DNA of 64,000 bases from Patescibacteria group bacterium (GTDB taxonomy: Bacteria; Patescibacteriota; Patescibacteriia; Buchananbacterales; UBA6539), in assembly GCA_028688055.1 (NCBI GenBank), contig JAQTYZ010000003.1, positions 1,191 through 65,190 on the forward strand. Direction: 5' to 3'. Shown here piece by piece: positions 24,794 through 47,823 of the stretch; within the stretch, counting starts at the first letter, position 1, and every line of letters begins with the position of its first letter. Made by a program: the position numbers and the translations under genes. The notes under the pieces were generated by a model. It saw only the letters and a list, made by a program, of their open reading frames with translations. It was not told the origin of the DNA and did no database searches.

Positions 24794-25180
24794 GCCAACT
24801 TTGAACGGTGAGTACATACTGGTGCCGTTGCCCAGCAGTAAGCGTCCGGGGCTGGGGATGCCGGTCATAAAGGGAAATCCGACCGGGGCGCAGAGGACCG
24901 ATTCTCGATGTGATCCATAAGGCGTAATGATTGTTTGTGACCAAGCTGGCGCTGGCGGAGTGCAGGGAGCGGAAACACAGCCACAACTTCCACAGGGACA
25001 GGCGACGCCAGTACAAACATCGGGTACGGGAGTGGCCATGGTGCAGCCAGGTATATAACTGGTGATTCGGCCGCCGAGATAATAAGGTGAGTAGGCTTGA
25101 ACGGATATTGCCAAAGCAAAAATTGACGCCACAATCGCCAAAATTATCAATGCTAAGCCAAGATGAATTTTTCGATGCAT
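24776..25180 (-). CDS. small secreted cysteine-rich protein (about 134 aa)
   Basis: RBS GAAGGA 5 nt before ATG (MHRKIHLGLALIILAIVASIFALA... signal/TM). Cys cluster CTGVACPCGSCGCVSAPC. The ORF track start at 25201 is probably upstream of the true start. Confidence 0.5.
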   Translation of the reverse strand: MHRKIHLGLALIILAIVASIFALAISVQAYSPYYLGGRITSYIPGCTMATPVPDVCTGVACPCGSCGCVSAPCTPPAPAWSQTIITPYGSHRESVLCAPVGFPFMTGIPSPGRLLLGNGTSMYSPFKVGLGFGR

Positions 25181-25240
25181 AATTCCTTCAAGGTAGATCA
25201 TAATAAAATTATAACACTTTTTACCTTTTTAGACATCAAG

Positions 25241-26095
25241 ATGGAAGAAATATTAAAAAAAATTAAAATAATCCTGCAAACATATGATCTTAAGCCCGAC
25301 CATAGCAAGGGCCAAAATTTTTTAATAAACTCAGCCATTATTAATGACATTATAGCGGCGGCTAATTTAAAAAAAACGGATTTAGTTTTAGAAGTCGGTC
25401 CGGGCTTAGGAATTTTGACTGAAGCGCTAATAACCAATGCTAAAAAAGTTGTCAGTGTCGAATTAGACAAGAAATTAATCGCTTTTTTAAAGTTGAAATT
25501 CAGCGGAGCGGATAATTTTACGTTGGTTGAAAATGATATCTTGCAATATGATCCGACTGGCGACTTTAAAACCAGTGACTACCGGATTGTTGCTAATTTA
25601 CCATATAATATTACCTCAATTTTTTTGCGCCGTTATTTATCAATTGAAGCTAGACCAACGGCAATGGTTTTGATGTTGCAAAAAGAAGTCGCCCAAAGAA
25701 TTTGTGCCGTGTTGGGCAAGACAAGTTTACTGTCGTTGTCCGTTCAATTGTATGCCGAGCCAAAAATTTATCAGCTAATTGAAAAAAATAATTTTTGGCC
25801 GAAGCCAGCGGTTGACTCAGCGATCTTAGTTATTGACAAAATTAAAAAAAAGTTGGAAGTGGATAAGTTTTTAGGTGATGTTAGTGAAGAATTTTTTTGG
25901 CGGGTGGCCAAAATTGGTTTCTCGGCGAGACGAAAACAACTACATAATAATTTAGCAAATGGTTTTAGAATTTCGCCCGATGATGCAAAAAAAATGCTTA
26001 TTAAAGCCAATTTATCAGAACAAATTAGAGCCCAAGATTTGTCGATACTTGATTGGTTAGCAATTGCTAAACAGTTGGCTGTTTTTATTAAATAA
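25241..26095 (+). CDS. rsmA: 16S rRNA (adenine1518/1519-N6)-dimethyltransferase
   Basis: KGQNFLINSAIINDIIAAANL...LEVGPGLGILTE...NLPYNITS are KsgA motifs. Start assigned to the MEEILKK Met rather than the 25163 ORF-track start. Confidence 0.88.
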   Translation: MEEILKKIKIILQTYDLKPDHSKGQNFLINSAIINDIIAAANLKKTDLVLEVGPGLGILTEALITNAKKVVSVELDKKLIAFLKLKFSGADNFTLVENDILQYDPTGDFKTSDYRIVANLPYNITSIFLRRYLSIEARPTAMVLMLQKEVAQRICAVLGKTSLLSLSVQLYAEPKIYQLIEKNNFWPKPAVDSAILVIDKIKKKLEVDKFLGDVSEEFFWRVAKIGFSARRKQLHNNLANGFRISPDDAKKMLIKANLSEQIRAQDLSILDWLAIAKQLAVFIK

Positions 26096-26202: not shown

Positions 26203-27030
26203 ATGGCCTCCCCGGTCAAACAACCTGATAATCTTAATGTTTTAGAAGAGATTTATCATGAGGTCGACTCAAAAAATGCGCCAAAAAAATCCGTTCATGA
26301 CAGCATTATTGGCTATCTTAAAGAGAATCCGAAACGAGTCGATGGTTTTTTGTCACTGGTGGTTATTTTTTTTGGCTTAGTGGCGATTATTTGGGGTTGG
26401 AGTCGATTCCAATATGGTCTGATCAGTTATCGATTGCCAAAGCCGGGGGATGCGGTAAAACTTTTGACCGCAAGCCAGCCGCCACCCCAAGATTTATTGG
26501 GTTTGAAAGGAAAAGATACGGATAATGATGGGCTGTCAGACTATGATGAAATTTATATTTATGGTACTAGTCCCTACCTGCCCGATAGCGACTCCGATGG
26601 CATTCCGGATAAGACGGAAATTGCTAATCACACTGATCCAACCTGCGCGTTAAATAATAACTGTTTTTCCCTGACAGCCCTAAACGCTGTTAATCCGGCT
26701 GACCGTAGTGACGCAACTAGTTTAACTTTTGACGCCAAAACCGAGACGATCAAGCTGCGCCAAGCCTTGTTAAATTCAGGTATGAGTCAATCAGACTTGG
26801 ACCAATTGAATGACGCTGATTTATTGGCGGCTTACAATGAAGTTATTGCCGGACAGGCTGGTTCGACGACGGCAACAATCCCTAGTAATGTTGAAGATTT
26901 AACACCAGATCAAATTAGAGCCGTGTTAAAAACGGCCGGCGTTAGCGATAGTGTTTTAAAAAATATTTCGGACAGCGATTTAATGAGTTTAGTTAAACAG
27001 CTGCCAACGTCAACACCGCCCACTAACTAG
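26203..27030 (+). CDS. single-pass membrane protein with thrombospondin-type-3-like Ca-binding Asp motifs
   Basis: TM (LSLVVIFFGLVAIIWGW), then DTDNDGLSDYDEIYIYGTSPYLPDSDSDGIPDKTE (DxDxDG repeats). It lies directly upstream of the giant gene, with a 5-nt gap. Confidence 0.6.
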   Translation: MASPVKQPDNLNVLEEIYHEVDSKNAPKKSVHDSIIGYLKENPKRVDGFLSLVVIFFGLVAIIWGWSRFQYGLISYRLPKPGDAVKLLTASQPPPQDLLGLKGKDTDNDGLSDYDEIYIYGTSPYLPDSDSDGIPDKTEIANHTDPTCALNNNCFSLTALNAVNPADRSDATSLTFDAKTETIKLRQALLNSGMSQSDLDQLNDADLLAAYNEVIAGQAGSTTATIPSNVEDLTPDQIRAVLKTAGVSDSVLKNISDSDLMSLVKQLPTSTPPTN

Positions 27031-27035
27031 CTTCA

Positions 27036-30000
27036 ATGCCAAAAATTAATATTTTTTCAAAAATAATTTCAGTCGGCCAAAAGTTATTTTTTGTTTGGTC
27101 ACAAAAAACTTTGACGGTTTTGGTCATTTTTAATATGTTGGCGACATCATTGGCACCAGCCTTGGCTTATCCGGTAACAGTTGATACCTCAAGTCTACAG
27201 CCGTTAGCTAGTGCGGTTGGTAATGCCTTTTTAAAATTGACCTTGACCGACGTTGCCCACGCTCAGCCATACGCCAGTGGGTATGTTATGCCGGCTAACC
27301 CGATGTCGATAATAGTCAGTGATGATTTTACTCATACTAACCTAATTTATAATGAAACAGCGGCTGAGGCTCGCAGTGCGGCCCAGATCGCTTTAGACAA
27401 AGCAACTCAAGGCTTGAAGGAATCAGCTTTTTTGGCGGCCAATCAGACTTTGAATGCGATGATTAATAGTTTTGCCTATGATGTTGCGACTTGGTTAGCT
27501 AGTGGCGGCAAGGGCCAGCAGCCAATGTTTTTTAACCAAGGCTGGGGTGAATATATGAAATCGTTGGTTGATGACGCGGCGGGAAATTTTATTGAGTCAT
27601 TGGCTGGTAATTGGTTAGACTTTAATGTTTGTGAGCCGATTAATCCTTCGTTAAAAATCAGTATCGGTCTAGGCTTGTCCGATCTGCAGCGGCCGCGGAA
27701 GCCCCAATGTAGTTTAAGTGATATGGTTCATAACTGGAGCTCATTGATTAACGATAAGAATTTTTTGAATCGCTTTGATGTTATCTATGATCCTGATCAA
27801 AATGATATCGGCATCGCTTTTAGTATTTTTAATAAATATAACCAGGAAATTTCCGACGAGCTTGACCAGGGCATAAAAGATCGAACTGAAGGCGGTGGTT
27901 TTAAGGCGGTGGTGGCAAAAATTTCCAAAGCGATTAAAACGCCGTCGTCGTTGGTTTTTTCGCAGGCGACTCGATTGACATCAGAACAGATTGACCAATC
28001 AGACAAAAAGGTTCAGTTTGGACCAATCGTCCTCAACGCGGTTGATACTTTTGTTAGCACGTTAATCGGCAAGCTGTTCCAGCGTTTGTTTAAAGAAGGT
28101 TTAGCCGGTGACTCAACGTCAAATAATCCGTCGGCCAGCGGTTATGGTGCTAACTTATTAAGCAGTTTGCTAGGTAAGTTGGGCCAGAATAATAATGATT
28201 TATATAGTGCCAACCAGACTAGTCTCCAGGGGCAGTCCTCGGCCCAAGTGCGTTTCCTTGATTTATTGACGACTGGCAATAATGATAGTAAGCCGATGGA
28301 TGTTTTGACTAAATTGACTTTTTGTCCTGATCCAAAAAATCCGGGACCGGACGAATGTGTTATTTTGCCGTCTTTTGCGCAAGCCGTTCAACAGGGGATG
28401 ACCTTAGCCGAAGCGATTAATCGCGGTTTAATTGACGGCAATGCGCCTTTTGGTCGACAAAGCAATGATCCAACCGCCCTTTATAGTGGCTTGCCGTACC
28501 GGAGTGTTGTTATTTTAAGAACTTATCGAATTGTGCCGGTAAGCTGGGAAGTCGCCGCTAAGGCAATCAATAAATTCGATGGCGGTAAAAATATTAGCTT
28601 GAATGATTTAATTGCTCAATATCAAGATCCGACGGCTGAATATTATGATTTGGTTAACCCGAATTGGGTGCTGGTGGCGCCGGATCATTTGTGTAAGGAA
28701 ACCGGTTTTGGTCCAAAAATTTTATATAACGAAAGTGTTAATGGTTTTGACGCCAATCAAAATGGAAGTTTTAATGATACCGGTGATATTCAGCCTAATC
28801 GCTTAATCGGTCGGGCTGAATATTGTGCTGACTATCAGTCCTGCATTCAAAAAAATGATGATGGTTCCTGCCAGTATTATGGTTATTGTGCTGAAGAGCG
28901 GCCGGTTTGGGATTTTAGTGGTGGTAGTTGCAAGCCTTATTATAATACTTGTCAAACTTTTCAGGCGCCAGCAGGCGATACCGTTAGTTATTTAAAGAAT
29001 AGCTTAAACTATAACGGGTGTAGCGCTGATAATGCCGGTTGTCAGTGGTACTGTCAGATTTTAAATCCAATTAATAATGTTTGGACTTGCCAGAATCAGA
29101 CGGAGCGGGTGCTGAAGGCCTGTTCTCAGAATGGCGGCTGTAGTGTTGCGGCAACTTGTACTTTAAGTCAAGGTGAGACAGCTTGTACCGATGCTAACTC
29201 GTCAGTTAATCTAACGATCGCTTCAGCTTGTGACTCTGGTTCGCGGTGGTGGAACGATGCCACTAGCAAGTGTGATGTTGATAGTGCTTGTACTATTGAA
29301 AAAGGGGCGGTCAGTTGTTCAACGGACAGTTGCTTTGAACAAGCCAATCTGTTAGCTAATGGCAGTTTCGAAACCCCGGCGGCCAACCCCGGCGGCTTGG
29401 CTAGCGGCTGGACCACCGACAGTGGAACTTTGGATTTTTTTGATCGGGTTAGTGGGGCCACGGAAAAAATTTACGATGGAAAGAGCAGTATTAGGTTTTA
29501 TACCGCCGGTCAGTTAATCGGCGCTGGCGACGTTAAATCAATTACCTCAAGTTCGTTAGCTTTAGCGACTTCTGGAACCTACACTTTTTCCGCTCGCGTT
29601 TACAGCAAGTTAAATGCCGGCAACATTACTTTGTCAGTTTATGACAGTAGCGGTCAGATTGCCTCGCGGGTGATTAGCGATAAAAATCGTTGGCAAATTG
29701 TTAGTTTTGATTTTACTACCAGCCAAGGTTCAGTTTGGGTCGTCGCTAGCATTGCCAGTCAAGGAACATTTTTAAGCGGCACGGCTTGGTTTGACGATTT
29801 CCGAATTACGCCCAGCTGTGTGATTAATCCGGTCACGCTGAATTTAGTTGGAACAGTTGAGCAAAATGAAAGCAAAATTCATTTGGATCGCGATGCTTCA
29901 GATTGTCCGTCGGAGGCGGCCGGCTGTTCGCAATTTATTAGAACCATTCCAAATTCGGGGACCAATATTGTTGATAATTCCAGCTTTGAGGATTGGCCAA

Positions 30001-33000
30001 ACCCAACCAGTCTGCCAACGGGTTGGAATCTTGGCGAAAATAATTCGGCGATAACAACCGAAAAGGTAAACGACAGTCCAATTGATAACTATAGTTTGAA
30101 AATAAATAACGATGGCGTTAATGGCACTTGTCGTGATTTTGATAGTGGCGTTTTGTCAGCGATGAAACCTAATACGACTTATCGGGTTTCCTTCTGGGCC
30201 AAGAGTGATTCCGATTTAGCCGAAGCCGACGGCCAGTGGTACGCTGAAATATTATCCAATCACGTGCCTAATGATTATTATTGTAGTCTGGATAATACGG
30301 CTAATTGTGATCCGTTTAATGAAGCAACTTGTAGTGCTGTTGGTAAGGGTGTTTGTGTTGGTGACTGGCAATTGCTACAAATTTCGTCAAATCAATATTT
30401 ATCATTGACCGCCAACTGGCAGCGATTTGTTTTAAATCCAATTACCACCCGAGCGGCTGGGGTTGATTTTAAATTTGCAATTGATAATTGTTCAACCGAT
30501 ACTGCTAATCCGATCTATCTTGACGGTGTTCAGATTGAAGAAGTTTCGACCAACAATCCCGTGCTGACTGATTATAAAGATTACGGTCAGACTAATTTAA
30601 CTTATCTCAAAAAACCGCCGGTTTATTTAAATTGTACCGGGGACTCAACTGATTCTGACGCTTGCGCCAACTATGCGCCATATTGTAAACCCGAAGAAGT
30701 CGGCTGTCAGGCGTTCGCGCCGCTGAGTGGCGGAGCGAAGGTCCCTGCCGTGATCAGACCAACTGATTTTTGTCCGGCCGAATGTGTTGGCTACCAAGCC
30801 TACAAGCAATCGGCGACGCCATTCGAAACGCAGCAAACTTTAGAATACTTTATTTCGTCAACCGCTAAACAATGCAACGCGTCAGCCGCCGGTTGCGATG
30901 AATTTACCAACTTAGATGAAGTGACTCAAGGTGGTGAAGGACGGGAATATTACAGTTACTTAAGGTTGTGTCAGAAGCCAGCTGATGTAGGCGCGAGCTG
31001 CCAGAGTTTTTACACTTGGCAGGGTTCCGATGAAACTGGTTTTCAGTTAAAAACTTACAGTTTGACCGGTGTGGCCGATGCCGCTGGACATCCAATTCCG
31101 ACACCAGCCATTAGTAATATTGATAGTTGGCCTGATCGGTGGTGCAGTGATAAGACGCTGGACGCGAATGGTTTGCCAAATTGTTGCGATGCTGCTGACG
31201 ACTTGGTTGACAATCCTTTTTGCAAACAGTTTTTTGCCGGCGATGGCTCCGTTTCTTATCAAATTTATGATAATACAATTAGTTGCTCGGACGACTGTCA
31301 TCCGTATCGAAAAACCTCATTAGGCGAAGATCCAACGGTGGCCGAGACGAATTGTAATGAGAGTCATGGGGTGTGGGACAACGGCGCTTGCGTTTATCAA
31401 GCGATTCCGGGGCAGGGCTTAAGTTGTTCCGCCAATTTTGCCGGCTGTCGTGAATATCGTGGCAACCAGAGCGGTAACATTTACACCGCCTTGACCGATA
31501 ATTTAGAATCGGGCGAAACCGCTAATTGGATTGACGGCGTTATTAGTAGTGAGGCTTTGAGTGTTGGCGGTCATTCCTTAAAGAGTACTGACAACGGCCT
31601 TGGCGGTCAGCAGGCGGCAACCTTTGTTGGTGATTTAGGAACTGTTTGTAGTGATAATTTACCGGCCTGTTCAGCCACGGTGACCACAAATTGTTATGAT
31701 CAAAGTACTATTAGGTGCTGGGTAAATACCGGTGGTCGATCGTGCCGCGTTAATGTTGGCGATCGTTATTGTGGTGTGGCGGGAAATACCGTTAAGAAAA
31801 GCAAGTCTTATATTCTAAATTTTTGGGCCAAAGCCAGCTCCGCTGTCCAAAACTTCACCGTGGAAATTGGTGATCGAGCAATACCAGTTAATAATATTAC
31901 GATTGGCCAAAGTAATCTCAATGCTGATTGGGGTTATTATTCAATGGGTCCATTTACCGTTGATGATAAGCCGGCTTTTGATCTGACCTCGGCTCAGCTT
32001 AGATTTAAATTGGGTACCGCTGTTACTTTTTATCTTGATAATATCCAGCTCAAAGAAGTTACTGGCCACACGTATGTTATAAAAAATTCATGGCAGACGC
32101 CGATGAGCTGCGACACTAATCCCTATCTTAATCCGCCGATCGCCGCGCCGCAGTATATGTTAAATTGTCAGCAGTATCGCAGTTCCACTGGGGCGATTTA
32201 TAATTTGAAATCATTTGATTCATTGTGTCGCGAGACGGCGGTTGGTTGCGAGGCGATGATCGATACTTATAATTCAGCTTCGCCGGTTGAACAGAAATTT
32301 AATCCCAACGACACCTTATCTGATGTTACTATCCCAGCTGATAAATTGGTTTACCTGGTTAATCGTCCGGAATTTCAATGTGCTTCAACGGTCAAGGGTT
32401 GTGAGGCCGTTGGGTTACCATCATTAAATACTTCTAATAATGTTACCGCGTATAGTACAGCCTATAAAATAAATGATCCTGACAAGTACGACACTATCCT
32501 TTGTAAAAATGAAGAAGTTGGTTGTCAGGAGTATGTTTCGGAAACTGGGTCCGATTACTTTAAGGCTCCGGGCGATAAGGTTTGCGAATATCGAACCATC
32601 CCGGGAACGACCAATTTAGGTTGGTTTATCAGAGGCTCAGTTAGTAATAATCCAGATTGTCCCGTTACTCAGCCGAGCGTTGGGGCGCTTCATCCTGATG
32701 GCAAAAAAGGTTTTGCCGGCTTATGTCCCAGTGAATATAACACGTGCACCCAATTTATCGATCCGATCAATAACGTTGGTAAAAATTTGCTTTATAACGG
32801 TAACCTCTCGGACATCAATAATGACGGCACGCCTGAAGGCTGGGATATTTTAGCAAGCCAGGATGGTCTGGTACAGTCTTTTAAATTAAAAGCGAACACG
32901 TCATATACCCTTAATTTTGTCGCCGACATTAATAACATCAGAGGCAGTTCAGCTGATTTGACGTTCACCGTCAATCATTGTCCCGGCATTTTTTCGTATG

Positions 33001-36000
33001 ATCATTCTTTGATTTATGATCAGGCTGATAATACCTTAATGAAAATGCCGGAGGATACCTATAACCAAGATAACCGCACCAGCGATAATACCAGTCCGGA
33101 TTATATTGAAGGTCTGTCTAACTTTCGTCAATATTCGGCCCGATTCTCGGTACCGGAAGACCAGGATTGTCAGGTTCAGGTTAAGTTGGCCGGTGCCACG
33201 GTTGCGGCTCTAAAAGCAAAGATTAAACAAGTTGGTTTAAGGGAAACCGGTGTTTACTATGCCCTGGGCAATTCGGTTGATAAAATCGGTTGTAACGGAA
33301 TCGTCAATCCGGAAAAGGGTTGCGTTTTATTCAATGATCGCAGTGGTGTCAATTATAAATTAGGTGAAGACGATATCAGCTATTTAGCGTTTGACGCCGA
33401 TGTCAGTGGCCCGGGAGTAAACGGTGGCGTTGGGGTGACCGACTGTGCTGGTAATTGCGATGCCAATGCGGTGATTAATGTTCGTCCGGATCGAACTTGT
33501 GAATCATGGTTAAATTGTAGTGTCGAAGGAACTTACCTCGATAACAAAGGTATTGCCAGAAAATATTGTGCACAAATTGGTTTGTGCGATCGGATGGATG
33601 CCAGCGGCCAATGCACCAATCAGGTCATTGGTAATAAGCAGTCATTGTTTGGTGATCCGGAACAAATTAAAAATTTGAGCGGTTATAGCAGCCCTGGCCT
33701 CATCTTTACCCGAGGAATTTGTGTTGCCCCGGCGGACAATAAGGGTATGACTTGTAACCAAAATTCGGATTGTGCTACTGACGCCAGCGGGGTTTGTGAT
33801 AAAAGTGTTTCGGGGGTGATGTCGTTTGAACAGATGATTCAACAAGGGCAGTCGTTCCGAGTCCCAAATGGTAATTTTGAATTAGCTTTTGGCGCCACCA
33901 CCGAACCAATCGGTTGGTCAACGATTATTGAAGGAACCAATACTGAACCGGTTGAATGGTATGACTATAAATTTAGAGTTGACCGGGATGTTAATAATGT
34001 GATTGAAGGTACCGGTTACCTGCGACTAAATTCTTTCTGGGAAACACAGTCTGAAGAAATTGATGTGGCGGAAGGCGAATTAACAACTATCTCGGCGATG
34101 ATTAATACGCAATTTCTCGAGAATCCGGCTAGTCAGTTAAATCCGACCGGTCAAGCTAAGGCTCAGATTTTAGTTAAAGCTTTGGATAGCAACGGTGCGG
34201 CGGTCGCCATTAAAGATGCCAGTGATGTTGCTTATCCGATGAAATATAATGGTTGGCAGTTGTTACAAAATGCCAACACGGCCTTAGAGGCTCAGGCCGG
34301 TTTGGATTGGCAACAGAAATCATTTACTTTTAAGATGCCAATTGGCGCGGTTAAATTTAAAATCAAGTTGAGTAATTATATTGATGAAGCCAAGTGCATT
34401 GATGCGGAAAGGTATAATCGTAAAGCCAGTAATTGTTCACTTGGTGGCTACTCTTTATTTGATTCAATTTCGTTAAAGCCGATTTTGAAAGTCAGAAATG
34501 AATTACCCGATGATTCGGTTGCGCGCAGTTGCCGTTTGTACCCGACGTCCGATGCGCTGGCCTGCGTGAATATGAAGGATAACGCTGTTTACTTTGGCCA
34601 GTACGGATACTGTGTTACGACGGATCCGCAAAATCCCAGCCAGTGTTTGCAATGGTGGCCGGTTGATCAAATTCAAGGTGAAACCTTGGATGAAGTAACG
34701 TCGGGTTATAACGATCGCGTGCCGCTGGATTATTGCACGCAAAAAAAAGATGTCGTCATTCGCGTTGGGGCCAATGCAACGTTGACGACGCTTGATTTGG
34801 GTAACTCAAATTTGTCAGGCAATTATACTTCAATGGTTAATTCTAGCGGTCAGCAAATGAAATTTTCTCAATTTAATATCAATGATGATTATCGAGCCCT
34901 GTTCCGCTATCCGTATGTTCAGTATTTACAAGTTCATGGTTCAATATCGGGAGGATCATTATTAAGTGGTGCGGGACTTGTCCCGACCATTTTTATCCCC
35001 ATCCCTTATGGTGCGAGGTTGTACAAAGATCATACCTGTTGGAAATTTATTAGTATTTTAGATAATCCAGGTTTTTCGGATATTGCCAACGGGGCGCTTT
35101 CCGGTACAAATGATTTTATTACTAATGGTTTATTCAGTAACCCTCTTTTGAGTGGCATTTTGGGTGATGTAACTTTTTGGCGACCAGGTGACCCAGGACA
35201 CGAAAGTGATGATTATGGTTCTTATTGTTGGAGTACTTCGCCGGGTGAAGACTGGGGTGGTTTTGCCGCTCTGGGCCTTGGCATATCAATTCCGCTTGGC
35301 GATTTTGGTATTGGGGCAGTTGTGTCACTCGGGTTCCCTTATAAGATGGCGCAAGCAACATCAATCTTGACGAGTTTTAATACCGAGCTAAGTAAATTGG
35401 TTGGAACCATGGTTGGTTTGGCCGGACCGGTGGCTGCCAAAATTATTACGGATCAAGATGAGTCAACTGGTAATACCACCAGCGATCCGGTGCCGGACTT
35501 AGAGGGTGATATTCTCGGCATTTCGGCGCAAATGCTGGGTCAAACAAATGGCGCGACCGCTCTCTTAGCGCCGGTTAGAGTTAACGGCGACGTGCCGGTG
35601 AAATATTGTTCCGAACTTGTTAGAGTCGTGACGTCAGCCGGCTCAAACCGAGGTTTTGCTAATCGCTTAACGGCCGGTAGTGGCTTTTTACTTAACGATA
35701 CGATTGACGGCCAACCGCGGCAATATCAATATTATAAACCGTTTGATTTTAGAGAATTGTTAGCCTATCCTAATCCAATGGATTATTATTCTTCCGATTT
35801 TCAGCCCTTTGGCGGTCTCGTGGCACCGACTAACAGTCAGTATCCGACCGCGTGGGACAGTAAATCAAGTCAGTATCGCCAGCCGTTATTTTTTGAGCCG
35901 CCGATGATGACCAGTTACAAAGCACCTTATCAGGCCCGAATGGGTGAAACACATACGGCCGGAAGCATTGAGCAAATTTTTGGCAAAAGCTATGGTATTT

Positions 36001-36644
36001 GGCATTGGGTCTGGAGTTCCGACAGTCTTGGTCAGCCGTTTGACGCTAATCACGGCGGACAATATGAAATTGGACCGATGGGTTATTGCGCTAGCGATAT
36101 AAACATAGCTTGTGCCGTCGATGCCGATTGCGGGTCAGGGTCGTGCTCGTTTACCCTAGATAAAGTGACCGCACCTTGGGATGTAATCGTGACGGCAGGA
36201 GATTGCCCTGGCAACATTAGACCGACTGACGGCACGCTTTGTCGCGTTTTACCGATAATCAGTAATATTAAAGTTAATGATAAGCCGCAAGTTGATATTC
36301 GACAATCAGGGTTGGTGAAGTTGACTTTCACGGTTAAAGTCGACCCGGATCAGTTGCCAATTACCGGTTATTCGGTTGATTGGGGCGATGGCAATACGAC
36401 TATTGTCAACGGTGTTGTTTTGCGAAATCGGGTGAATCCGGATAATCCTTTTGCCCTGTATCATCTTTACACCTATTGGTCGGCGTTTCAGGCCATCGGT
36501 CCTTATAATCTACCGGTTTGTGTTGGTGATAATTGTGTGGCGAAAATAAGAATTCGCGCTAAAGATAATTGGGGTGCGGAAAGCGGGACTGCCAGTAATC
36601 CGTGGATAACAATGAGTGGTAACATAACTATTTATAAAAAATAA
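27036..36644 (+). CDS. giant (3202 aa) signal-anchored surface protein with cysteine-motif repeats, multiple CBM4_9-like beta-sandwich modules and a C-terminal PKD-like domain
   Basis: A single 9.6-kb ORF with an N-terminal hydrophobic anchor (TLTVLVIFNMLATSLAPALA). At least 9 copies of a (A/V)GC(Q/E/D)x(F/Y/M)-type Cys motif (NAGCQWY, EVGCQAF, AAGCDEF, FAGCREY, AVGCEAM, VKGCEAV, EVGCQEY, YNTCQTF, YNTCTQF). Several NG(S/N)FE...GW... starts typical of CBM_4_9 modules. A PKD-like YSVDWGDGNTT near the C-terminus. Confidence 0.85.
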   Translation: MPKINIFSKIISVGQKLFFVWSQKTLTVLVIFNMLATSLAPALAYPVTVDTSSLQPLASAVGNAFLKLTLTDVAHAQPYASGYVMPANPMSIIVSDDFTHTNLIYNETAAEARSAAQIALDKATQGLKESAFLAANQTLNAMINSFAYDVATWLASGGKGQQPMFFNQGWGEYMKSLVDDAAGNFIESLAGNWLDFNVCEPINPSLKISIGLGLSDLQRPRKPQCSLSDMVHNWSSLINDKNFLNRFDVIYDPDQNDIGIAFSIFNKYNQEISDELDQGIKDRTEGGGFKAVVAKISKAIKTPSSLVFSQATRLTSEQIDQSDKKVQFGPIVLNAVDTFVSTLIGKLFQRLFKEGLAGDSTSNNPSASGYGANLLSSLLGKLGQNNNDLYSANQTSLQGQSSAQVRFLDLLTTGNNDSKPMDVLTKLTFCPDPKNPGPDECVILPSFAQAVQQGMTLAEAINRGLIDGNAPFGRQSNDPTALYSGLPYRSVVILRTYRIVPVSWEVAAKAINKFDGGKNISLNDLIAQYQDPTAEYYDLVNPNWVLVAPDHLCKETGFGPKILYNESVNGFDANQNGSFNDTGDIQPNRLIGRAEYCADYQSCIQKNDDGSCQYYGYCAEERPVWDFSGGSCKPYYNTCQTFQAPAGDTVSYLKNSLNYNGCSADNAGCQWYCQILNPINNVWTCQNQTERVLKACSQNGGCSVAATCTLSQGETACTDANSSVNLTIASACDSGSRWWNDATSKCDVDSACTIEKGAVSCSTDSCFEQANLLANGSFETPAANPGGLASGWTTDSGTLDFFDRVSGATEKIYDGKSSIRFYTAGQLIGAGDVKSITSSSLALATSGTYTFSARVYSKLNAGNITLSVYDSSGQIASRVISDKNRWQIVSFDFTTSQGSVWVVASIASQGTFLSGTAWFDDFRITPSCVINPVTLNLVGTVEQNESKIHLDRDASDCPSEAAGCSQFIRTIPNSGTNIVDNSSFEDWPNPTSLPTGWNLGENNSAITTEKVNDSPIDNYSLKINNDGVNGTCRDFDSGVLSAMKPNTTYRVSFWAKSDSDLAEADGQWYAEILSNHVPNDYYCSLDNTANCDPFNEATCSAVGKGVCVGDWQLLQISSNQYLSLTANWQRFVLNPITTRAAGVDFKFAIDNCSTDTANPIYLDGVQIEEVSTNNPVLTDYKDYGQTNLTYLKKPPVYLNCTGDSTDSDACANYAPYCKPEEVGCQAFAPLSGGAKVPAVIRPTDFCPAECVGYQAYKQSATPFETQQTLEYFISSTAKQCNASAAGCDEFTNLDEVTQGGEGREYYSYLRLCQKPADVGASCQSFYTWQGSDETGFQLKTYSLTGVADAAGHPIPTPAISNIDSWPDRWCSDKTLDANGLPNCCDAADDLVDNPFCKQFFAGDGSVSYQIYDNTISCSDDCHPYRKTSLGEDPTVAETNCNESHGVWDNGACVYQAIPGQGLSCSANFAGCREYRGNQSGNIYTALTDNLESGETANWIDGVISSEALSVGGHSLKSTDNGLGGQQAATFVGDLGTVCSDNLPACSATVTTNCYDQSTIRCWVNTGGRSCRVNVGDRYCGVAGNTVKKSKSYILNFWAKASSAVQNFTVEIGDRAIPVNNITIGQSNLNADWGYYSMGPFTVDDKPAFDLTSAQLRFKLGTAVTFYLDNIQLKEVTGHTYVIKNSWQTPMSCDTNPYLNPPIAAPQYMLNCQQYRSSTGAIYNLKSFDSLCRETAVGCEAMIDTYNSASPVEQKFNPNDTLSDVTIPADKLVYLVNRPEFQCASTVKGCEAVGLPSLNTSNNVTAYSTAYKINDPDKYDTILCKNEEVGCQEYVSETGSDYFKAPGDKVCEYRTIPGTTNLGWFIRGSVSNNPDCPVTQPSVGALHPDGKKGFAGLCPSEYNTCTQFIDPINNVGKNLLYNGNLSDINNDGTPEGWDILASQDGLVQSFKLKANTSYTLNFVADINNIRGSSADLTFTVNHCPGIFSYDHSLIYDQADNTLMKMPEDTYNQDNRTSDNTSPDYIEGLSNFRQYSARFSVPEDQDCQVQVKLAGATVAALKAKIKQVGLRETGVYYALGNSVDKIGCNGIVNPEKGCVLFNDRSGVNYKLGEDDISYLAFDADVSGPGVNGGVGVTDCAGNCDANAVINVRPDRTCESWLNCSVEGTYLDNKGIARKYCAQIGLCDRMDASGQCTNQVIGNKQSLFGDPEQIKNLSGYSSPGLIFTRGICVAPADNKGMTCNQNSDCATDASGVCDKSVSGVMSFEQMIQQGQSFRVPNGNFELAFGATTEPIGWSTIIEGTNTEPVEWYDYKFRVDRDVNNVIEGTGYLRLNSFWETQSEEIDVAEGELTTISAMINTQFLENPASQLNPTGQAKAQILVKALDSNGAAVAIKDASDVAYPMKYNGWQLLQNANTALEAQAGLDWQQKSFTFKMPIGAVKFKIKLSNYIDEAKCIDAERYNRKASNCSLGGYSLFDSISLKPILKVRNELPDDSVARSCRLYPTSDALACVNMKDNAVYFGQYGYCVTTDPQNPSQCLQWWPVDQIQGETLDEVTSGYNDRVPLDYCTQKKDVVIRVGANATLTTLDLGNSNLSGNYTSMVNSSGQQMKFSQFNINDDYRALFRYPYVQYLQVHGSISGGSLLSGAGLVPTIFIPIPYGARLYKDHTCWKFISILDNPGFSDIANGALSGTNDFITNGLFSNPLLSGILGDVTFWRPGDPGHESDDYGSYCWSTSPGEDWGGFAALGLGISIPLGDFGIGAVVSLGFPYKMAQATSILTSFNTELSKLVGTMVGLAGPVAAKIITDQDESTGNTTSDPVPDLEGDILGISAQMLGQTNGATALLAPVRVNGDVPVKYCSELVRVVTSAGSNRGFANRLTAGSGFLLNDTIDGQPRQYQYYKPFDFRELLAYPNPMDYYSSDFQPFGGLVAPTNSQYPTAWDSKSSQYRQPLFFEPPMMTSYKAPYQARMGETHTAGSIEQIFGKSYGIWHWVWSSDSLGQPFDANHGGQYEIGPMGYCASDINIACAVDADCGSGSCSFTLDKVTAPWDVIVTAGDCPGNIRPTDGTLCRVLPIISNIKVNDKPQVDIRQSGLVKLTFTVKVDPDQLPITGYSVDWGDGNTTIVNGVVLRNRVNPDNPFALYHLYTYWSAFQAIGPYNLPVCVGDNCVAKIRIRAKDNWGAESGTASNPWITMSGNITIYKK

Positions 36645-40142: not shown

Positions 40143-41480
40143 ATGATTATTACCGAACAACTTCTGAACGAATTTGAGCTGCATTCCCGCGATGTGGTCA
40201 GATTTAATAATGTCGCTGAGGCCAAGACGTTTGTCAAAGAAATTTGGCCGGATATTTCGTCCGATCAAGATTGGGCCCGGGAGCATCCGAAGCTCTACGA
40301 CCGACTTAAAAAGCTTAATAATATTAACAATATTTTGTTAATATCAACAATGAATGATGAAGGTTTTTTGGAAATATGTGAGGCTGGTTTGGAGGTGTAC
40401 TTTACCGATATGATTGAAGACATAGATTTGTGGGAGTTAATTCGGGCGAAGTTGGTGGCGATGGTTGATTTTGAAGCCCGGGATAAGTTTAAAGAAAAAA
40501 TTAGAAAATCGCTGTTGCGCAACAAGGGGGTTATTTCATCAAGAAAAATTTTAAGAAATAATCAAGAGTATACGCCGTCAATTGCCGAATGGCTGGTCGA
40601 CTATACGAGCGCGGTTGGAGTCAGTGAAGCTGGTACGGTAAAAATGAATGAGTATTTTATCGCCAGTAAAAACTACCAGCAATTAAACGGCAAAGAAAAA
40701 GATGCGGTCCGACAGCTGATCAGTATTTATGAAAGATTGAAAAAATCTTCCGCCAAACCGGACGGATTGGAGGAGCGAGTTTTGGTTTCTGAAAATGGTC
40801 GATTTGCCATTTTTCGCGACGGCAGTTTTGAAAGCATTGATCCTAAATTGCAGGCCTTATTAAAGGCAGCTAATATCAGTATTAGTGGTTCGTCAGATGA
40901 AGACCAGCCGCCGGTTATCATTAGTCAGACAGCCGCGGCGGTTGAAAAAACTGAAGGGCTTGAAAAAGATCAAGCGCGAACAATGACCGTGTCGGAACAG
41001 GAAATTTATAATGCTTATCAAGGTGATCCAAGGCAAAAAAGTGCCATTGCCAAAGAGGAAGAAAATTTAACCAAGAAATTTGGCACGGATGAGGTAAAAT
41101 TAAGGGCCGAGTTTTATCAGGCCGTTCAGAAAAAAAATATTAACTTAACCATCGCTATTATTCGGCGCCTGGCCGCGCTTGGTGAATTGGTTAAATTTTT
41201 GCAAACGGATGTAAAATTAAATAATTTTTTGACAAAAACTTGGGACAAGCGATATGGACAAGCTTTTGCTGATGAATTTGTTAAAAATCCCGACCAACCT
41301 AAGTTCATCAAATTATTTTTGCGTTATATTTTAGAGGAACGTTTGGGGATGAATTCTAGCGATGCCGCGCGCGTGGGACTACACGTGGCCAATGTTTTTG
41401 TAAATTCCGGTAAAAAAAGTTATAATAAAGTGGCTTATTTCGATATTAAGACTAAAACGTTTAATTGGTTTGAGGGGTAG
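40143..41480 (+). CDS. hypothetical cytoplasmic protein (445 aa)
   Basis: Long ORF with coherent composition and no recognisable motifs. It lies within the T4SS-like block. Confidence 0.6.
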   Translation: MIITEQLLNEFELHSRDVVRFNNVAEAKTFVKEIWPDISSDQDWAREHPKLYDRLKKLNNINNILLISTMNDEGFLEICEAGLEVYFTDMIEDIDLWELIRAKLVAMVDFEARDKFKEKIRKSLLRNKGVISSRKILRNNQEYTPSIAEWLVDYTSAVGVSEAGTVKMNEYFIASKNYQQLNGKEKDAVRQLISIYERLKKSSAKPDGLEERVLVSENGRFAIFRDGSFESIDPKLQALLKAANISISGSSDEDQPPVIISQTAAAVEKTEGLEKDQARTMTVSEQEIYNAYQGDPRQKSAIAKEEENLTKKFGTDEVKLRAEFYQAVQKKNINLTIAIIRRLAALGELVKFLQTDVKLNNFLTKTWDKRYGQAFADEFVKNPDQPKFIKLFLRYILEERLGMNSSDAARVGLHVANVFVNSGKKSYNKVAYFDIKTKTFNWFEG

Positions 41481-41817
41481 GGTTTAGGATGGTGGGAAGT
41501 AGGAGAGTAGGTGTTAGCCTTAACAGTCACGTCATACAAGGCATGCTAAATTCTCTGAGAATGACAAATAAAGTAGTGTCATCCTGTCCGCCGGCTGGCG
41601 GATCAGGATCTAGGAGATAAAGAACCCTGTCATTGCGAGCCACGACGTTAAGCCATGGGCGAAGCAATCCCCCTCTAATGAATTAACTAGGCAGATCGCC
41701 ACGTCGTCCTAGTTGACGCAGGTGAGATGGACTCCTCGCGATGACGCAGAGCTAATTATTACTAATAACTAACAGTTACTCCTGGTTTTGGGGACAGGTG
41801 AGGAAAGGAATAATAAA
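41481..41817 (+). ncRNA. structured 5' leader of metK (candidate riboswitch or cis-regulatory RNA, possibly SAM-responsive)
   Basis: 337-nt ORF-free gap containing nested helices: an outer GUCAUUGCGAG/CUCGCGAUGAC, inner CGACG/CGUCG and GGCGA/UCGCC, and a separate AUCCUG-(CCGCC GGCU GGCGG)-CAGGAU element. An anti-SD-like ACUCCUGG lies about 20 nt before the GAGGAAAGGA SD. No SAM-I consensus is present. Confidence 0.3.
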
Positions 41818-42990
41818 GTGTTGACCAAAGAAAATCATAAAAGCTACGTGTTTACTTCAGAGTCCGTCACGGAAGGACATCCTGATAAAATTTGTGATCA
41901 AATTTCTGACGGTATTTTGGATGCGGCCCTGACCGATGATCCAATGTCGCGCGTGGCCATTGAAACCCTGGTAACCACCGGCTTAGTCGTCGTGGCCGGC
42001 GAGATGACTACTTCGACCTACATTGATGTCCCAAAAGTTGTTCGTAAAATCATTAAAGATATCGGTTATACTGATCCGACCATTGGGTTTGATGCCGAAA
42101 ATTGCGCTGTCGTTACGTCAATTGATGCCCAGAGTCAGGATATTTCTCAAGGTGTCGATGAATTGGCCAATAAAGAGCAGGGTGCCGGCGATCAAGGAAT
42201 GATGTTTGGCTATGCCACTGATGAGACGCCGGAATTTATGCCTTTGCCAATTGTTTTAGCGCATAAATTAACTCAGAAATTGGCGGAAGTAAGAAAGAAT
42301 GGGACGCTGCCATGGTTGCGTCCTGACGGCAAAGCGCAGGTGAGCGTCGAATATGAAGGCGGTAAGCCAAAACGACTGACGGCCGTTGTTGTTTCAACCC
42401 AGCACACCGCCGAGACATCGCTTGAGACAGTTGAAAAAGAAGTGAAGGAAAAAATAATTGTCCCAATTTGTGGTGAATTTATTGATGGTGAAACAAAATA
42501 TTTTATTAATCCGACCGGCCGGTTTGTCATTGGCGGACCGCACGGTGACAGTGGCGTGACCGGTAGAAAAATAATTGTGGACACTTATGGCGGACACGGC
42601 AGTCATGGTGGTGGGGCATTCTCGGGTAAAGATCCCTCAAAAGTTGATCGCTCAGCTTCTTATGCTGCTAGGTATATTGCCAAAAATATTGTCGCGGCGG
42701 GAATTGCTAAGCAGTGTGAAGTCCAAATTGCCTACGCGATTGGCGTCGCCGAACCGGTTTCATTGCTCGTTAATACCGGCGGTAGCGGCATAGTGGACGA
42801 GGAAAAAATTGCTCAAGCCGTCCGAAAAATTTTTCCGCTAAAACCGGCCGACATCATTAAACAATTGAATTTGCGTCGACCCATCTACATCAAAACAACT
42901 TGTTATGGCCATTTTGGCCGGACGGATCAAGATTTTACCTGGGAAAAGACTGATAAAGTAGACGAATTGAAAAAAGAGCTGGGACTTTAA
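41818..42990 (+). CDS. metK: S-adenosylmethionine synthetase
   Basis: [52 protein letters not shown]. Start assigned to the GTG after the GAGGAAAGGA RBS; the ORF track extends to the TTG at 41788. Confidence 0.92.
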
Positions 42991-43016: not shown

Positions 43017-44123
43017 ATGATTCTGGAAGATAAAAATAATGCTGATGATTTTTTTCGGGCTTTGGGACAAAATCTAAGCGCGGCTAACCCTCCAGATGAT
43101 GAAATTGTTTTCCGAGATGATGATGGTAAATTGAAAATATTAAAAGGAGGGGCAATTTTGGATTATAGTCAAGATGCCGTTGGGGCCGAAGAAAAATCCG
43201 GGGTTAAGCTAGAAGCGGTTAGCGAGTCAAATGCTGTCTTAACTAACGTTTTGCCCCAGCCAGATTCAAAATTGGATAATATTGCGGAACAGATTATTAA
43301 GGACTCAGGTGTTACCTCAAAGGATGATGATTATCGTAAAAGATTTAAAAGTATTATTTTATCTAGGCTTAAGGATGTCAGAGATCAAGTACAGACTCGA
43401 GAAGCGCTGCTTAGTTCGTCAATGGTGGGCGGTGTTGACTTAAATAATCAACAGGTAGATAAAATACTTGGTTTAATCAGCGCTAGCCTTGATCAGGTTC
43501 ACAGTGATATTAGAACAGCCATAAATAACGAACCATTTTCTGATTTAAGAGCTGAGGCGCAGCAGATATTGTCGGAACCTGAATTAGCGCAGAAGCCTGA
43601 ATTTAAGCCTGTTATCCTGGTACCAGAAAAAAAAGTTGAAGTTGAGCCGCCAGCCAAGCCAGTAGCAATACCAGCCCCGATGGGCTTTAGCACTAATCCC
43701 GTGACGGCCAGACTAGGAGCAAACCCGCCTAAAATAACGCCCATTGTTGAAAAATCAATTGGCAAGCCAAAAGTTGAAGATGTTCGGTTCAAACCGCGCT
43801 TAACCGGTCCGGTGGAAGAGATTAAAAGTATGAAGTTAGTTGATTTCAGACGATTAGCCCAATCGCCAGCACAGGCCATTGAAAAGATTATTGGAAAAAT
43901 TGATTTACTTGAAGCGGAAGCTTTTACCAAAAAAACGGAAGCCATCAAAGCTTGGAAGCAAAATGAGATCAATCAAATGTATATTGAATTGGGTGATCAA
44001 AGTATGGAAGAGCGTAAGTCAATTTCGGACATTATTGCCGAGCGCCAGTCGGGGGGGCAACCGACTTTAACCGAAGAAGAAGTTGATGCGATTATCGAAT
44101 TAAATAAAAGGCTAAGATATTAG
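43017..44123 (+). CDS. hypothetical acidic protein (368 aa)
   Basis: ORF with a 2-nt gap to the next gene. Charged, with no TM. Confidence 0.55.
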   Translation: MILEDKNNADDFFRALGQNLSAANPPDDEIVFRDDDGKLKILKGGAILDYSQDAVGAEEKSGVKLEAVSESNAVLTNVLPQPDSKLDNIAEQIIKDSGVTSKDDDYRKRFKSIILSRLKDVRDQVQTREALLSSSMVGGVDLNNQQVDKILGLISASLDQVHSDIRTAINNEPFSDLRAEAQQILSEPELAQKPEFKPVILVPEKKVEVEPPAKPVAIPAPMGFSTNPVTARLGANPPKITPIVEKSIGKPKVEDVRFKPRLTGPVEEIKSMKLVDFRRLAQSPAQAIEKIIGKIDLLEAEAFTKKTEAIKAWKQNEINQMYIELGDQSMEERKSISDIIAERQSGGQPTLTEEEVDAIIELNKRLRY

Positions 44124-44124
44124 G

Positions 44125-44583
44125 ATGCAGCAATTTGTGGTGCCACAATTCATTGATGTCGAAGATAAAATTTTGGGACCAATTACCGTTCGCCAATTTA
44201 TTATTATTTTAGTCGGCGGTGGGATTGACTTTGTCGCTTATAAGCTGTCTGATTTTACCTTATTTTTATTGCAGTTCGTTATTGTGTCGTTGATAAGTTT
44301 TATTGTTGCTTTTATCAAAATAAACGGACGACCCATTCACTATTTTTTGCTTAATGTTTTTCAAACCGTTAAAAGACCGAAACGCCGGGTCTGGCAAAAA
44401 ATATTTTCGACCGCACTTTTGAAAAGCTATTTGAATATTAAGGAAATCAGATTGCCACCAACCATCACCACCAAGAATAAAGTGAGGGCATCGCGTTTAG
44501 CCGAGATGTCTTTGATTGTTGATACCGGTGGGGTTTATCAGGGTGAAAAAGAACCGCCAAATTCGACTAATGAATTAGTATAA
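44125..44583 (+). CDS. VirB3-like small membrane protein (two TM helices)
   Basis: 152 aa. A hydrophobic hairpin (FIIILVGGGIDFVAY...FLLQFVIVSLISFIVAFI). Its position immediately upstream of VirB4 is typical of VirB3/PrgI/TcpD. Confidence 0.45.
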   Translation: MQQFVVPQFIDVEDKILGPITVRQFIIILVGGGIDFVAYKLSDFTLFLLQFVIVSLISFIVAFIKINGRPIHYFLLNVFQTVKRPKRRVWQKIFSTALLKSYLNIKEIRLPPTITTKNKVRASRLAEMSLIVDTGGVYQGEKEPPNSTNELV

Positions 44584-44605
44584 GCCCGCTAATTTTTAAC
44601 TGGGT

Positions 44606-45286
44606 ATGAAGTCAAATAAACTAGCAAACAAAAAGATTAAGGCATCAACGCAACACTTTTTGGATGTGGCCGAGATTAAAGAAGACTGTGTGCTATTAAA
44701 AGATGGGACGTTGCGCGCTGTTTTACTGGTTTCAAGTATTAATTTTTCGTTAAAATCTGAAGATGAGCAAAATGCTATTATTGCGGCTTATATTGGATTT
44801 TTAAATTTTTTGGAATTTCCGCTCCAAATTGTCATTCAGTCGCGTCAGCTCGACATCGATGGTTATCTTGATCGGTTGAAAAAGATTGAAAAAGAGCAAA
44901 CCAATGAATTATTACGAATTCAGACCGCTGAGTATCGCCAGTATGTCAGTGAGTTAGTTGACTTGGGTGAAATTATGAATAAGCGATTTTATGTTGTCAT
45001 TCCTTACGATCCATTATCTGACAAACAAAAATCATGGTTTAAGCGTTTACTTGGCTTGTTTACCGCCGCCAAGGAAGTTAAATTGAATCAAGACGCTTTC
45101 AGCAAAAGACGACACGAATTATTTCAACGAGTCGACCATATCTTATCCGGACTTGCTAGTATGAGTCTAAAATCAGTGGTTTTGGATACCCAGAGTTTGA
45201 TTGAACTTTATTATAATACTTATAATCCCGATGTTTACAGTAAGGAAAAATTGGTGGAGATTAATAAGCTTAGGATTGAAGAATAA
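44606..45286 (+). CDS. VirB4/TrbE N-terminal domain protein (split VirB4, part 1)
   Basis: HFLDVAEIKEDCVLLKDGTLRAVLLVSSINFSLKSEDEQNAII fits the CagE/TrbE/VirB N-terminal pattern (..tkdGsl.a...l.g.d..s.see..). It ends 2 nt before the ATPase ORF, in another frame. Confidence 0.55.
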   Translation: MKSNKLANKKIKASTQHFLDVAEIKEDCVLLKDGTLRAVLLVSSINFSLKSEDEQNAIIAAYIGFLNFLEFPLQIVIQSRQLDIDGYLDRLKKIEKEQTNELLRIQTAEYRQYVSELVDLGEIMNKRFYVVIPYDPLSDKQKSWFKRLLGLFTAAKEVKLNQDAFSKRRHELFQRVDHILSGLASMSLKSVVLDTQSLIELYYNTYNPDVYSKEKLVEINKLRIEE

Positions 45287-45288
45287 TT

Positions 45289-47217: not shown

Positions 47218-47223
47218 TTTTTT

Positions 47224-47823
47224 ATGAACATGAGCAGAAGAAACAAAATAATCATTGGCGTCGCAGTTTTGATTCTAATTGTTTTATTAATTTCATTTTT
47301 GGCGTGGTGGTGGTATGACCGAAAGCAGGCGGCCAATTCTTTAATAAATACCAATAGTACCGCTGGGCAGTTGCCTGGCGAATTGCCAACGGCTTCAAGT
47401 GGTTTACCGACAACGACGGTTGTCGTTAAACCGGATCAAGAAGCGATCATTAAGGCAGTGGCGATGACCTTTGCCGAGCGTTTTGGCAGCTATTCCAATG
47501 AAATTAATTTTTCTAATCTTGATGACTTGCAAAATATTATAACGGTAAAAATGAAAACGTGGGTTGATAATTATAAGGTTAGTGAAGTTGCCAAAATTAG
47601 CGGCAGCAACTATTATGGTATCACTACTAAGGCACTGTCCGTCAAGATTAATTCGATGGATGACATAGCGGGACGGGCGGAAGTTGTCGTTCAAACTCAG
47701 CGCGGAGAAGCTAAGGGAAGTTCAATTAATCCCAAGATTTTTTATCAGGCCATTAATCTGTCAATGATTAATGACGGCAGTGGTTGGAAAATTGATTCAG
47801 CCGATTGGCAAGCCATTAAATAA
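47224..47823 (+). CDS. bitopic membrane protein (N-terminal TM plus roughly 170-aa extracytoplasmic domain), possible VirB8-like component
   Basis: TM IIIGVAVLILIVLLISFLAWWWY. Its size and topology fit VirB8/TcpC-like proteins, but there is no motif-level support. Confidence 0.3.
   Translation: MNMSRRNKIIIGVAVLILIVLLISFLAWWWYDRKQAANSLINTNSTAGQLPGELPTASSGLPTTTVVVKPDQEAIIKAVAMTFAERFGSYSNEINFSNLDDLQNIITVKMKTWVDNYKVSEVAKISGSNYYGITTKALSVKINSMDDIAGRAEVVVQTQRGEAKGSSINPKIFYQAINLSMINDGSGWKIDSADWQAIK

Follow-up and report, generated by a model that had tools for sequence, protein, structure and literature searches.

A giant cysteine-rich protein with CBM-like modules encoded beside a VirB6-like gene in a Patescibacteria type IV secretion locus

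Background

A large part of the bacterial diversity that is still uncultured belongs to Patescibacteria, which live attached to other cells. Giant adhesin-like proteins of such episymbionts and adhesins linked to type IV secretion systems (T4SSs) are both already known kinds, and we describe here a very large protein (hereafter, the giant) that is encoded beside T4SS genes in a 64,000-nt stretch of DNA (the window) from a Patescibacteria group bacterium (assembly GCA_028688055.1, contig JAQTYZ010000003.1, positions 1,191 to 65,190 of the forward strand).

In Vampirococcus lugosii, giant surface proteins of 1392-4163 amino acids (aa) were proposed for host attachment (PMC8080830), and in Omnitrophota the giant genes adjoin secretion-system genes (bioRxiv 10.1101/2023.11.21.568195). 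As for the T4SS, it is essential in the cultured Saccharibacterium Southlakia epibionticum, its role being called completely unknown (PMC10633639, PMC11665869); polysaccharide-binding surface proteins are essential in the same species (PMC10633639), and the role proposed below for the giant is parallel to theirs. A survey of the Patescibacteria T4SS detected no adhesin, the PrgB type included (PMC12102498).

The T4SS of the window is of the monoderm, MPF-FATA-like type that was described for Patescibacteria in this survey. We propose that the giant is a Sec-exported, disulfide-stabilised surface protein of this ABY1-type Patescibacteria T4SS locus and would dock it to host glycans, a reading to which we give an even chance. 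New are its fixed architecture, its constant place beside virB6, and two sequence features without family assignment that are defined here, namely an N-terminal domain (N-domain) and a scaffold marked by the motif C-x6-C-x2-[FY].

Results

The gene neighbourhood is the strongest functional clue for the giant and was missed by an earlier note on this DNA, which had been made from the sequence alone. Neighbourhood counts were drawn from 83 related loci (for the features of the window, see Table 1). The most constant neighbour was the VirB6-like gene, which starts 60 nt beyond the stop codon of the giant in the window and, among the 55 loci extending far enough, was found no more than 3.5 kb downstream in 52 (95%). 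Its product, of about 760 to 1450 aa in related loci, consists in the window of a polytopic membrane domain of about 450 aa followed by a highly charged, presumably cytoplasmic part of about 690 aa without a family match. VirB4 was located downstream in 25 of the 33 loci with a flank of at least 9.5 kb, and the giant of the window lies within 20 genes of virB4, the distance applied in the above-mentioned survey (PMC12102498). On the other side, the TSP3 gene ends 5 nt before the start codon of the giant and was directly upstream in 56 of 65 loci; the gaps between the small upstream gene and the giant were -4 to +27 nt in seven loci, which suggests that the TSP3 gene and the giant are translationally coupled. 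The remainder of the T4SS block was assigned with Pfam (PrgI, TraG P-loop/AAA_10), NCBIfam (TrsD) and synteny. In two distant loci (L084 and L085), the giants of which are 25-29% identical to ours, the series of a small protein, the giant, a 900-1030-aa protein, PrgI, the TraC-like protein and VirB4 was kept, and the genes further upstream differed; in a third (L086), the contig of which ends just downstream, the TSP3 gene and the giant were all that was common with the window. In a promoter and terminator scan, terminators were at chance level.

Two T4SS_pilin genes lie further upstream, with a DsbA gene 2 nt before the first of them and about 11 kb upstream of the giant. The 3D domain (PF06725), to which the second pilin is fused, occurs in MltA/RlpA-type wall-cutting proteins. 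The fusion protein could supply the VirB1-like wall-opening function, which was rarely found near virB4 in the survey (PMC12102498).

The giant is 100% identical to a protein of a metagenome-assembled genome (MAG) at NCBI, named 'carbohydrate binding domain-containing protein [Patescibacteria group bacterium]'. Cys makes up 3.25% of its residues versus 0.70% on average in the other 38 proteins of the window (4.6-fold), and in the family alignment 59 of its 104 Cys were conserved in at least 80% of the homologues; the median Cys content was 3.7% in 140 full-length members. Among 60 family members inspected, the large majority had a hydrophobic N-terminal segment. Since A-x-A follows this segment in many of them, a cleavable Sec signal peptide is likelier than a membrane anchor, a candidate that was dropped after the N-termini of the family had been inspected (cleavage was judged by eye, without a prediction tool). 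At the C-terminus (...NITIYKK), neither a sortase signal nor an LPXTG motif with a hydrophobic tail, as in the PrgB-type anchor, was found; the sole LP.[TSA]G of the giant is LPITG at aa 3107, within the PKD-like domain. The Sec-type signal, the Cys excess and the Cys conservation support the extracellular, disulfide-rich protein envisaged in the earlier note, and the giant is probably exported via Sec and disulfide-oxidised. The membrane-anchored DsbA with its CSYC site adds to this support and, as suggested in that note, may oxidise the giant; the fibre also suggested there may be formed as well.

Five modules (B1-B5) were delimited from family sub-alignments. The carbohydrate-binding module (CBM) family CBM_4_9 (PF02018) matched the whole giant in three stretches with 73.2 bits (cut-off, 25.9) and, when tiles were searched, matched aa ~775-910, 977-1060 and 1588-1665 (59.3 bits for B1 and B2 together); the tiles of B4 and B5 gave no CBM_4_9 match. 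The sequences NGSFE, NSSFE and NGNFE were located at aa 775, 981 and 2278, respectively. In profile-profile comparison with hhalign, B1, B2, B3 and B5 were mutually related with 93-98% probability where matched (B1-B2, 98.3%; B2-B3, 97.7%), nothing above 50% was obtained for B3-B5, and the relation of B4 was weaker (75-88% to B1 and B2, over 54-61 columns of the N-terminal half). B1, B2 and B5 were modelled with confidence by AlphaFold2 (AF2), run with an alignment of 35 sequences; for B2, of which aa 977-1060 is the best Pfam stretch, the predicted local distance difference test (pLDDT) value was 80-90. Foldseek, for which whole 1200-residue models were used so that the matches were dominated by jelly rolls, gave template modelling (TM) scores of 0.66-0.70 to CBM4-2, 0.79 to CBM61 and 0.72-0.77 to a porphyran-binding CBM for the models of B1, B2 and B5. 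The beta-jelly-roll fold is thus superposable on solved CBM4-type modules, and the CBM_4_9-type beta-sandwich modules proposed in the earlier note are present by Pfam and by fold. The B modules may bind glycans. Their number per protein was 1-6 (mode, 4) among the 140 full-length members, versus five in the giant of the window.

All nine Cys heptapeptides quoted in the earlier note were located (aa 636, 666, 1221, 1284, 1468, 1735, 1786, 1827 and 1901), and a tenth copy, AAGCSQF at aa 961, had been overlooked. The motif given there, xxGC(Q/E/D)x(F/Y), is real, but too short: a second Cys stands exactly seven residues upstream in each copy. The full motif, C-x6-C-x2-[FYWMV], starts at aa 632, 662, 957, 1217, 1280, 1464, 1731, 1782, 1823 and 1897; ten copies were observed versus 0.55 expected from composition-preserving shuffles of the giant, and there were 4-12 copies in each of 33 homologues and 4-13 in the 140 full-length members. 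Each of the 20 motif Cys of the giant was shared by at least 97% of the family, and most were invariant. When 290 copies from 33 homologues were stacked, the core was of about 12 residues, roughly C-[SP]-A-[DE]-[EA]-[VA]-G-C-x-E-[YF]-[TI], and the information content was at background about three residues beyond it. With hhalign, 56-residue motif windows gave a probability of about 50-96% for many pairs with only 13-30 columns aligned; the top pair (632/662) was discounted as an artefact of overlapping windows. Considering the short core and the short alignments, the motifs form a repeat family, as had been proposed, in the sense of a short recurring disulfide motif and not of a domain-sized repeat. 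Because the motif Cys are invariant and at fixed spacing, the C-x6-C-x2-[FY] units presumably close disulfide loops. The match between Cys-rich stretches 2 and 3 (74.6% over 70 columns with hhalign) may reflect an ancient duplication of a unit with two motifs.

The Cys-rich stretches do alternate with the CBM-like modules; however, their description as spacers put the emphasis wrongly, as they constitute the family's conserved core and the modules its variable part. Alignment occupancy was near 1.0 and consensus identity 0.5-0.64 in the stretches, whereas B1 and B2 were the most variable parts (consensus identity, 0.19-0.32), and BLAST alignments extended over B1 for only about 18 of the 32 homologues. 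Because the stretches are conserved while B1 and B2 vary, the former appear to be the scaffold and the lectin-like modules the exchangeable elements. The tiles aa 591-780, 1191-1480 and 1686-1915 matched no Pfam family at E<=5 (EGF, TSP1, furin-like and GCC2_GCC3 included), and stretch aa 1195-1480 as a lone query retrieved only fragments of the giant family, the module not being found in other architectures. In the AF2 model, aa 676-770 formed stacked beta-hairpins (pLDDT 75-92).

The N-domain was the best conserved region of the family, with invariant R495, R498, W504, E505 and W544 and four conserved Cys pairs. It matched nothing in Pfam, in NCBIfam or among PDB sequences. Sequence and profile searches of the PDB were likewise without a significant match for the whole giant, the N-domain and the C-terminal 350 aa, and Pfam scans of the N-domain and the C-terminus of each member gave scattered chance matches only. 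The AF2 model was confident only at aa 416-615, the helical part having pLDDT <60. The high conservation of the N-domain and the Cys-rich scaffold and the fixed position beside VirB6 would also fit a structural part of the T4SS, that is, a wall- and S-layer-spanning stalk or conduit that replaces the missing VirB7/9/10 or carries VirB2-like pilins; known envelope-spanning parts and adhesins are lacking in the monoderm-type T4SS of Patescibacteria (PMC12102498), and pilin genes and DsbA are encoded nearby. However, the AF2 models show no oligomerisation or channel-like feature, the CBM and PKD content is typical of adhesins, and a module count of 1 to 6 would be unusual in a core part of a machine, and we regard this alternative as quite unlikely.

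For the C-terminal domain, the earlier note had proposed a PKD-like domain; fold and WGDG motif agree with this, but no Pfam family model does. The sequence YSVDWGDGNTT lies at aa 3112-3122 and includes a WxxGDG-type turn, W3116 and G3117 being found in at least 90% of the family. A PKD-type beta-sandwich fold was obtained for this domain, the match being assigned to it by size and by the shared WGDG and H-x-Y pattern since the matched part of the query was not reported. Pfam PKD models gave no match to the whole giant (E<=1), to the C-terminal tile (E<=5) or to any of 35 members scanned (E<=1), and a PDB-sequence profile search with the C-terminus gave none. The PKD-like end was found in 136 of the 140 full-length members.

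Within the variable Gly-rich region, a hydrophobic stretch, GGFAALGLGISIPLGDFGIGAVVSLGF, is located at aa 2634-2800 (window position, ~34935-35435; AF2 pLDDT <40). A comparable hydrophobic peak was found only in the closest, Buchananbacteria-like homologues. This stretch may be membrane-active, and on this basis one could consider the giant a secreted attack factor (a toxin or a breacher of the host envelope), in which the CBM-like modules would be receptor binders as in Vip3 and Cry. The Foldseek matches include the Vip3, Cry1 and Cry8 toxins and phage baseplate and tail-fibre proteins, via the CBM-like domains, and the signal peptide looks cleavable without a following anchor; however, the toxin matches had a whole-chain TM score of only ~0.1 and came from the jelly rolls alone, Pfam scans found no catalytic or pore-forming domain, and the hydrophobic segment is absent from most family members and modelled as disordered. 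We consider an attack factor highly improbable.

An exhaustive HMMER search with aa 96-700 found 1338 clusters at 50% identity, 913 of them at E<=1e-30. Among the best 150 matches, most proteins were of 2400-3800 aa and about a fifth were shorter, with the query domain near the N-terminus; the 32 homologues from the indexed search (2019-3841 aa) were collinear end to end. A tiny family of about 35 proteins, as it appeared in word-indexed homologue searches, reflected the limit of the index and was overturned by the exhaustive search. The pattern GC[DSE][EQ]FTN[LV][DS], derived from the motif copy at aa 1280, occurred in 351 stretches of a species-representative genome set, of which 348 were confirmed relatives. 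Named records with relatives belong to Buchanan-, Falkow- and Magasanikbacteria, which we take to be lineages of GTDB class ABY1, or to 'Parcubacteria/Patescibacteria group'. Many MAG records with a clearly Patescibacteria locus (L007, L009, L013 and others) are titled 'uncultured Gammaproteobacteria bacterium', evidently a placeholder or a wrong taxonomy. In a literature search of incomplete coverage, no paper mentioning the giant family was found.

Table 1. Features of the giant and of its neighbourhood in the window
Feature	Residues (aa)	Window position	Strand	Remarks
DsbA-like oxidoreductase		14839-15594	+	Membrane anchor; CSYC; Pfam
First T4SS_pilin gene		15597-16412	+	Pfam
408-aa T4SS_pilin (PF18895) fused to C-terminal Cys-rich 3D domain (PF06725)		16470-17696	+	Pfam
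ksgA (rRNA adenine dimethylase)		25163-26095	+	One gene upstream of giant
275-aa single-pass membrane protein, two TSP3 (Ca-binding type) repeats		26203-27030	+	Pfam TSP3_bac, E 5.5e-10
Giant open reading frame		27036-36644	+	ATG start, uninterrupted; 3202 codons/aa; 104 Cys
N-terminal hydrophobic segment, Sec signal peptide, probably cleaved	17-47	27084-27176	+	Ends APALA|YP; hydropathy peak 1.92
Conserved N-domain: helical part, then alpha/beta part	~100-620	27333-28895	+	Invariant YRSxxILRxxRIxPVGWExAA
Cys-rich stretch 1	597-770	28824-29345	+	Motif copies at aa 632, 662
B1, CBM_4_9-like jelly roll	770-945	29343-29870	+	Starts NGSFE; Pfam, AF2, Foldseek to solved CBMs
Motif copy 3, CPSEAAGCSQF	957-967	29904-29936	+	C957 invariant, C964 in 97% of family
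B2, CBM_4_9-like jelly roll	975-1190	29958-30605	+	Starts NSSFE; Cys-containing insert aa 1083-1107
Cys-rich stretch 2	1195-1476	30618-31463	+	Motif copies at aa 1217, 1280, 1464; among best conserved parts
B3, CBM_4_9-like module	1476-1692	31461-32111	+	Cys-rich insert aa 1538-1579; Pfam 24.7 bits
Cys-rich stretch 3	1690-1908	32103-32759	+	Motif copies at aa 1731, 1782, 1823, 1897
B4, probable jelly roll	1908-2082	32757-33281	+	Starts NLLYNGNLSD...PEGW
Cys-rich stretch 4	2082-2270	33279-33845	+	Without C-x6-C motif
B5, CBM-like jelly roll	2270-2485	33843-34490	+	Starts NGNFE
Conserved Cys-containing beta region	2490-2600	34503-34835	+	C2499, C2510, C2526, C2537, C2567 in >=90% of family
Variable Gly-rich, partly hydrophobic region	2600-2850	34833-35585	+	Occupancy 0.36-0.63; AF2 pLDDT <40, modelled disordered
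Conserved alpha/beta region, no known family	2850-3055	35583-36200	+	AF2 pLDDT 62-86
C-terminal PKD-like beta-sandwich	3055-3202	36198-36641	+	WGDG at aa 3116-3119
VirB6/TrbL-like extended polytopic membrane protein, 1143 aa		36705-40136	+	Pfam TrbL 26.6 bits, cut-off 25.9
445-aa cytoplasmic protein, no family assigned		40143-41480	+	6 nt after VirB6-like gene
metK (S-adenosylmethionine synthetase)		41788-42990	+	Between 445-aa and 368-aa proteins
T4SS block remainder: 368-aa protein, PrgI (VirB3-like), TrsD/TraC-like, VirB4-type ATPase, 199-aa membrane protein		43017-47823	+	Basis given in the text
VirB4-type ATPase		45289-47217	+	Giant 7 genes upstream

Among the other genes of the window, metK occupies its position within the T4SS block in 12 of the 83 related loci. 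The ksgA gene keeps its place one gene upstream of the giant in the distant loci L084 and L085 despite the other changes upstream. A second large exported protein (59718-63170, + strand; 1150 aa, signal peptide, Asn/Gly-rich, 14 Cys) matched nothing in Pfam or NCBIfam and lacked the C-x6-C motif.

Discussion

In the reading that we prefer, the cleavable signal peptide would send the giant outside the cell, where the conserved N-domain would be the likeliest region to attach to the membrane components of the T4SS, its possible partners being the co-translated TSP3-repeat membrane protein encoded upstream and the extended VirB6 encoded downstream. The Cys-rich scaffold, pinned by the C-x6-C-x2-[FY] disulfide loops, would carry one to six CBM4/16/22/61-type jelly rolls and the PKD-like end. 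The lectin-type modules would bind glycans of the host-cell surface and thereby hold the T4SS of the symbiont against the host envelope, and the variable ones might contribute to host specificity. We hold both the T4SS association and the adhesin role to be about as likely as not.

Several observations weigh against this reading. The giant is homologous to no known T4SS subunit or adhesin, as CBM_4_9 was the only match in Pfam, NCBIfam and PDB-sequence searches. If the signal peptide is cleaved, neither a membrane anchor nor a sortase signal is left, and thus surface retention is an assumption. AF2 pLDDT stayed <60 at each of the five motif copies that the models covered, and three of the 55 loci were without a recognisable VirB6-like gene downstream. 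Furthermore, of 65 loci, 52 had ksgA upstream, synteny extends to leuS and femAB, and metK lies within the block; because housekeeping genes are likewise syntenic, synteny alone is weak evidence in such small genomes. An alternative would be a general envelope or glycan-capturing protein (an S-layer-like coat or a polysaccharide scavenger), the adjacency of which to the T4SS would be frozen gene order: the synteny of leuS, femAB, sua5 and ksgA almost equals that of the T4SS genes, which metK interrupts, the carbohydrate-binding domains are the only named ones in the giant, and homology to T4SS parts is lacking. On the other hand, the order TSP3, giant, VirB6-like, PrgI and VirB4 was kept at 25-29% identity where the genes further upstream had changed, the narrow gaps to the TSP3 gene and, in the window, to the VirB6-like gene suggest one transcription unit, and the VirB6-like gene is the neighbour kept most constantly. 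We therefore judge a general surface protein to be unlikely.

A bolder form of the docking proposal, which we put forward tentatively and hold to be somewhat doubtful, is that the whole giant family is the extracellular host-docking arm of the Patescibacteria T4SS, in which the N-domain would sit on VirB6 and the TSP3 protein, the scaffold would bridge the gap, and swappable lectin modules would set the host. The functional link of the giant to the T4SS is genomic only. A lectin-bearing, strongly conserved giant that adjoins virB6 in at least 348 species genomes is nevertheless a specific candidate for the part of the T4SS that contacts the host, and it therefore offers a handle for the prediction of host range from the variable CBM-like modules, for structural work and for pull-downs.

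Among known systems, PrgB/aggregation substance (pCF10 type, MPF-FATA) resembles the giant in its monoderm-type T4SS locus, Sec export and surface exposure (presumed for the giant), in the combination of a lectin-like ligand-binding part with Ig-like domains, and in the presumed role of joining two cells for the T4SS. In contrast to PrgB, the giant, roughly threefold larger, combines a Cys-rich scaffold with a novel N-domain, shows no sequence or profile similarity to it, and has no LPXTG anchor. CagY of the Helicobacter pylori Cag T4SS is likewise very large and T4SS-associated, and its repeat region has regularly spaced Cys and is host-exposed; however, CagY is homologous to VirB10 and belongs to a diderm system, similarity to the giant was not detected, and the module content differs. 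Unlike the beta-jelly-roll modules of CBM families 4/9, 16, 22 and 61, those of the giant are not attached to a glycoside hydrolase and sit between disulfide-rich stretches, and two of them carry Cys-rich inserts. Its version of the PKD domain (PF00801 / PF18911) differs by insertions and a Cys pair and escapes the Pfam models in 35 members. With the giants of Vampirococcus and Omnitrophota, it shares the very large size, export, adhesion-type or CBM-like modules, ultra-small host-dependent cells and a supposed role in host recognition; no relatives among those proteins turned up in the searches made, which included no dedicated test of relationship. The giant family differs from them in its fixed collinear architecture, its defined C-x6-C motif and its fixed VirB4/VirB6 locus.

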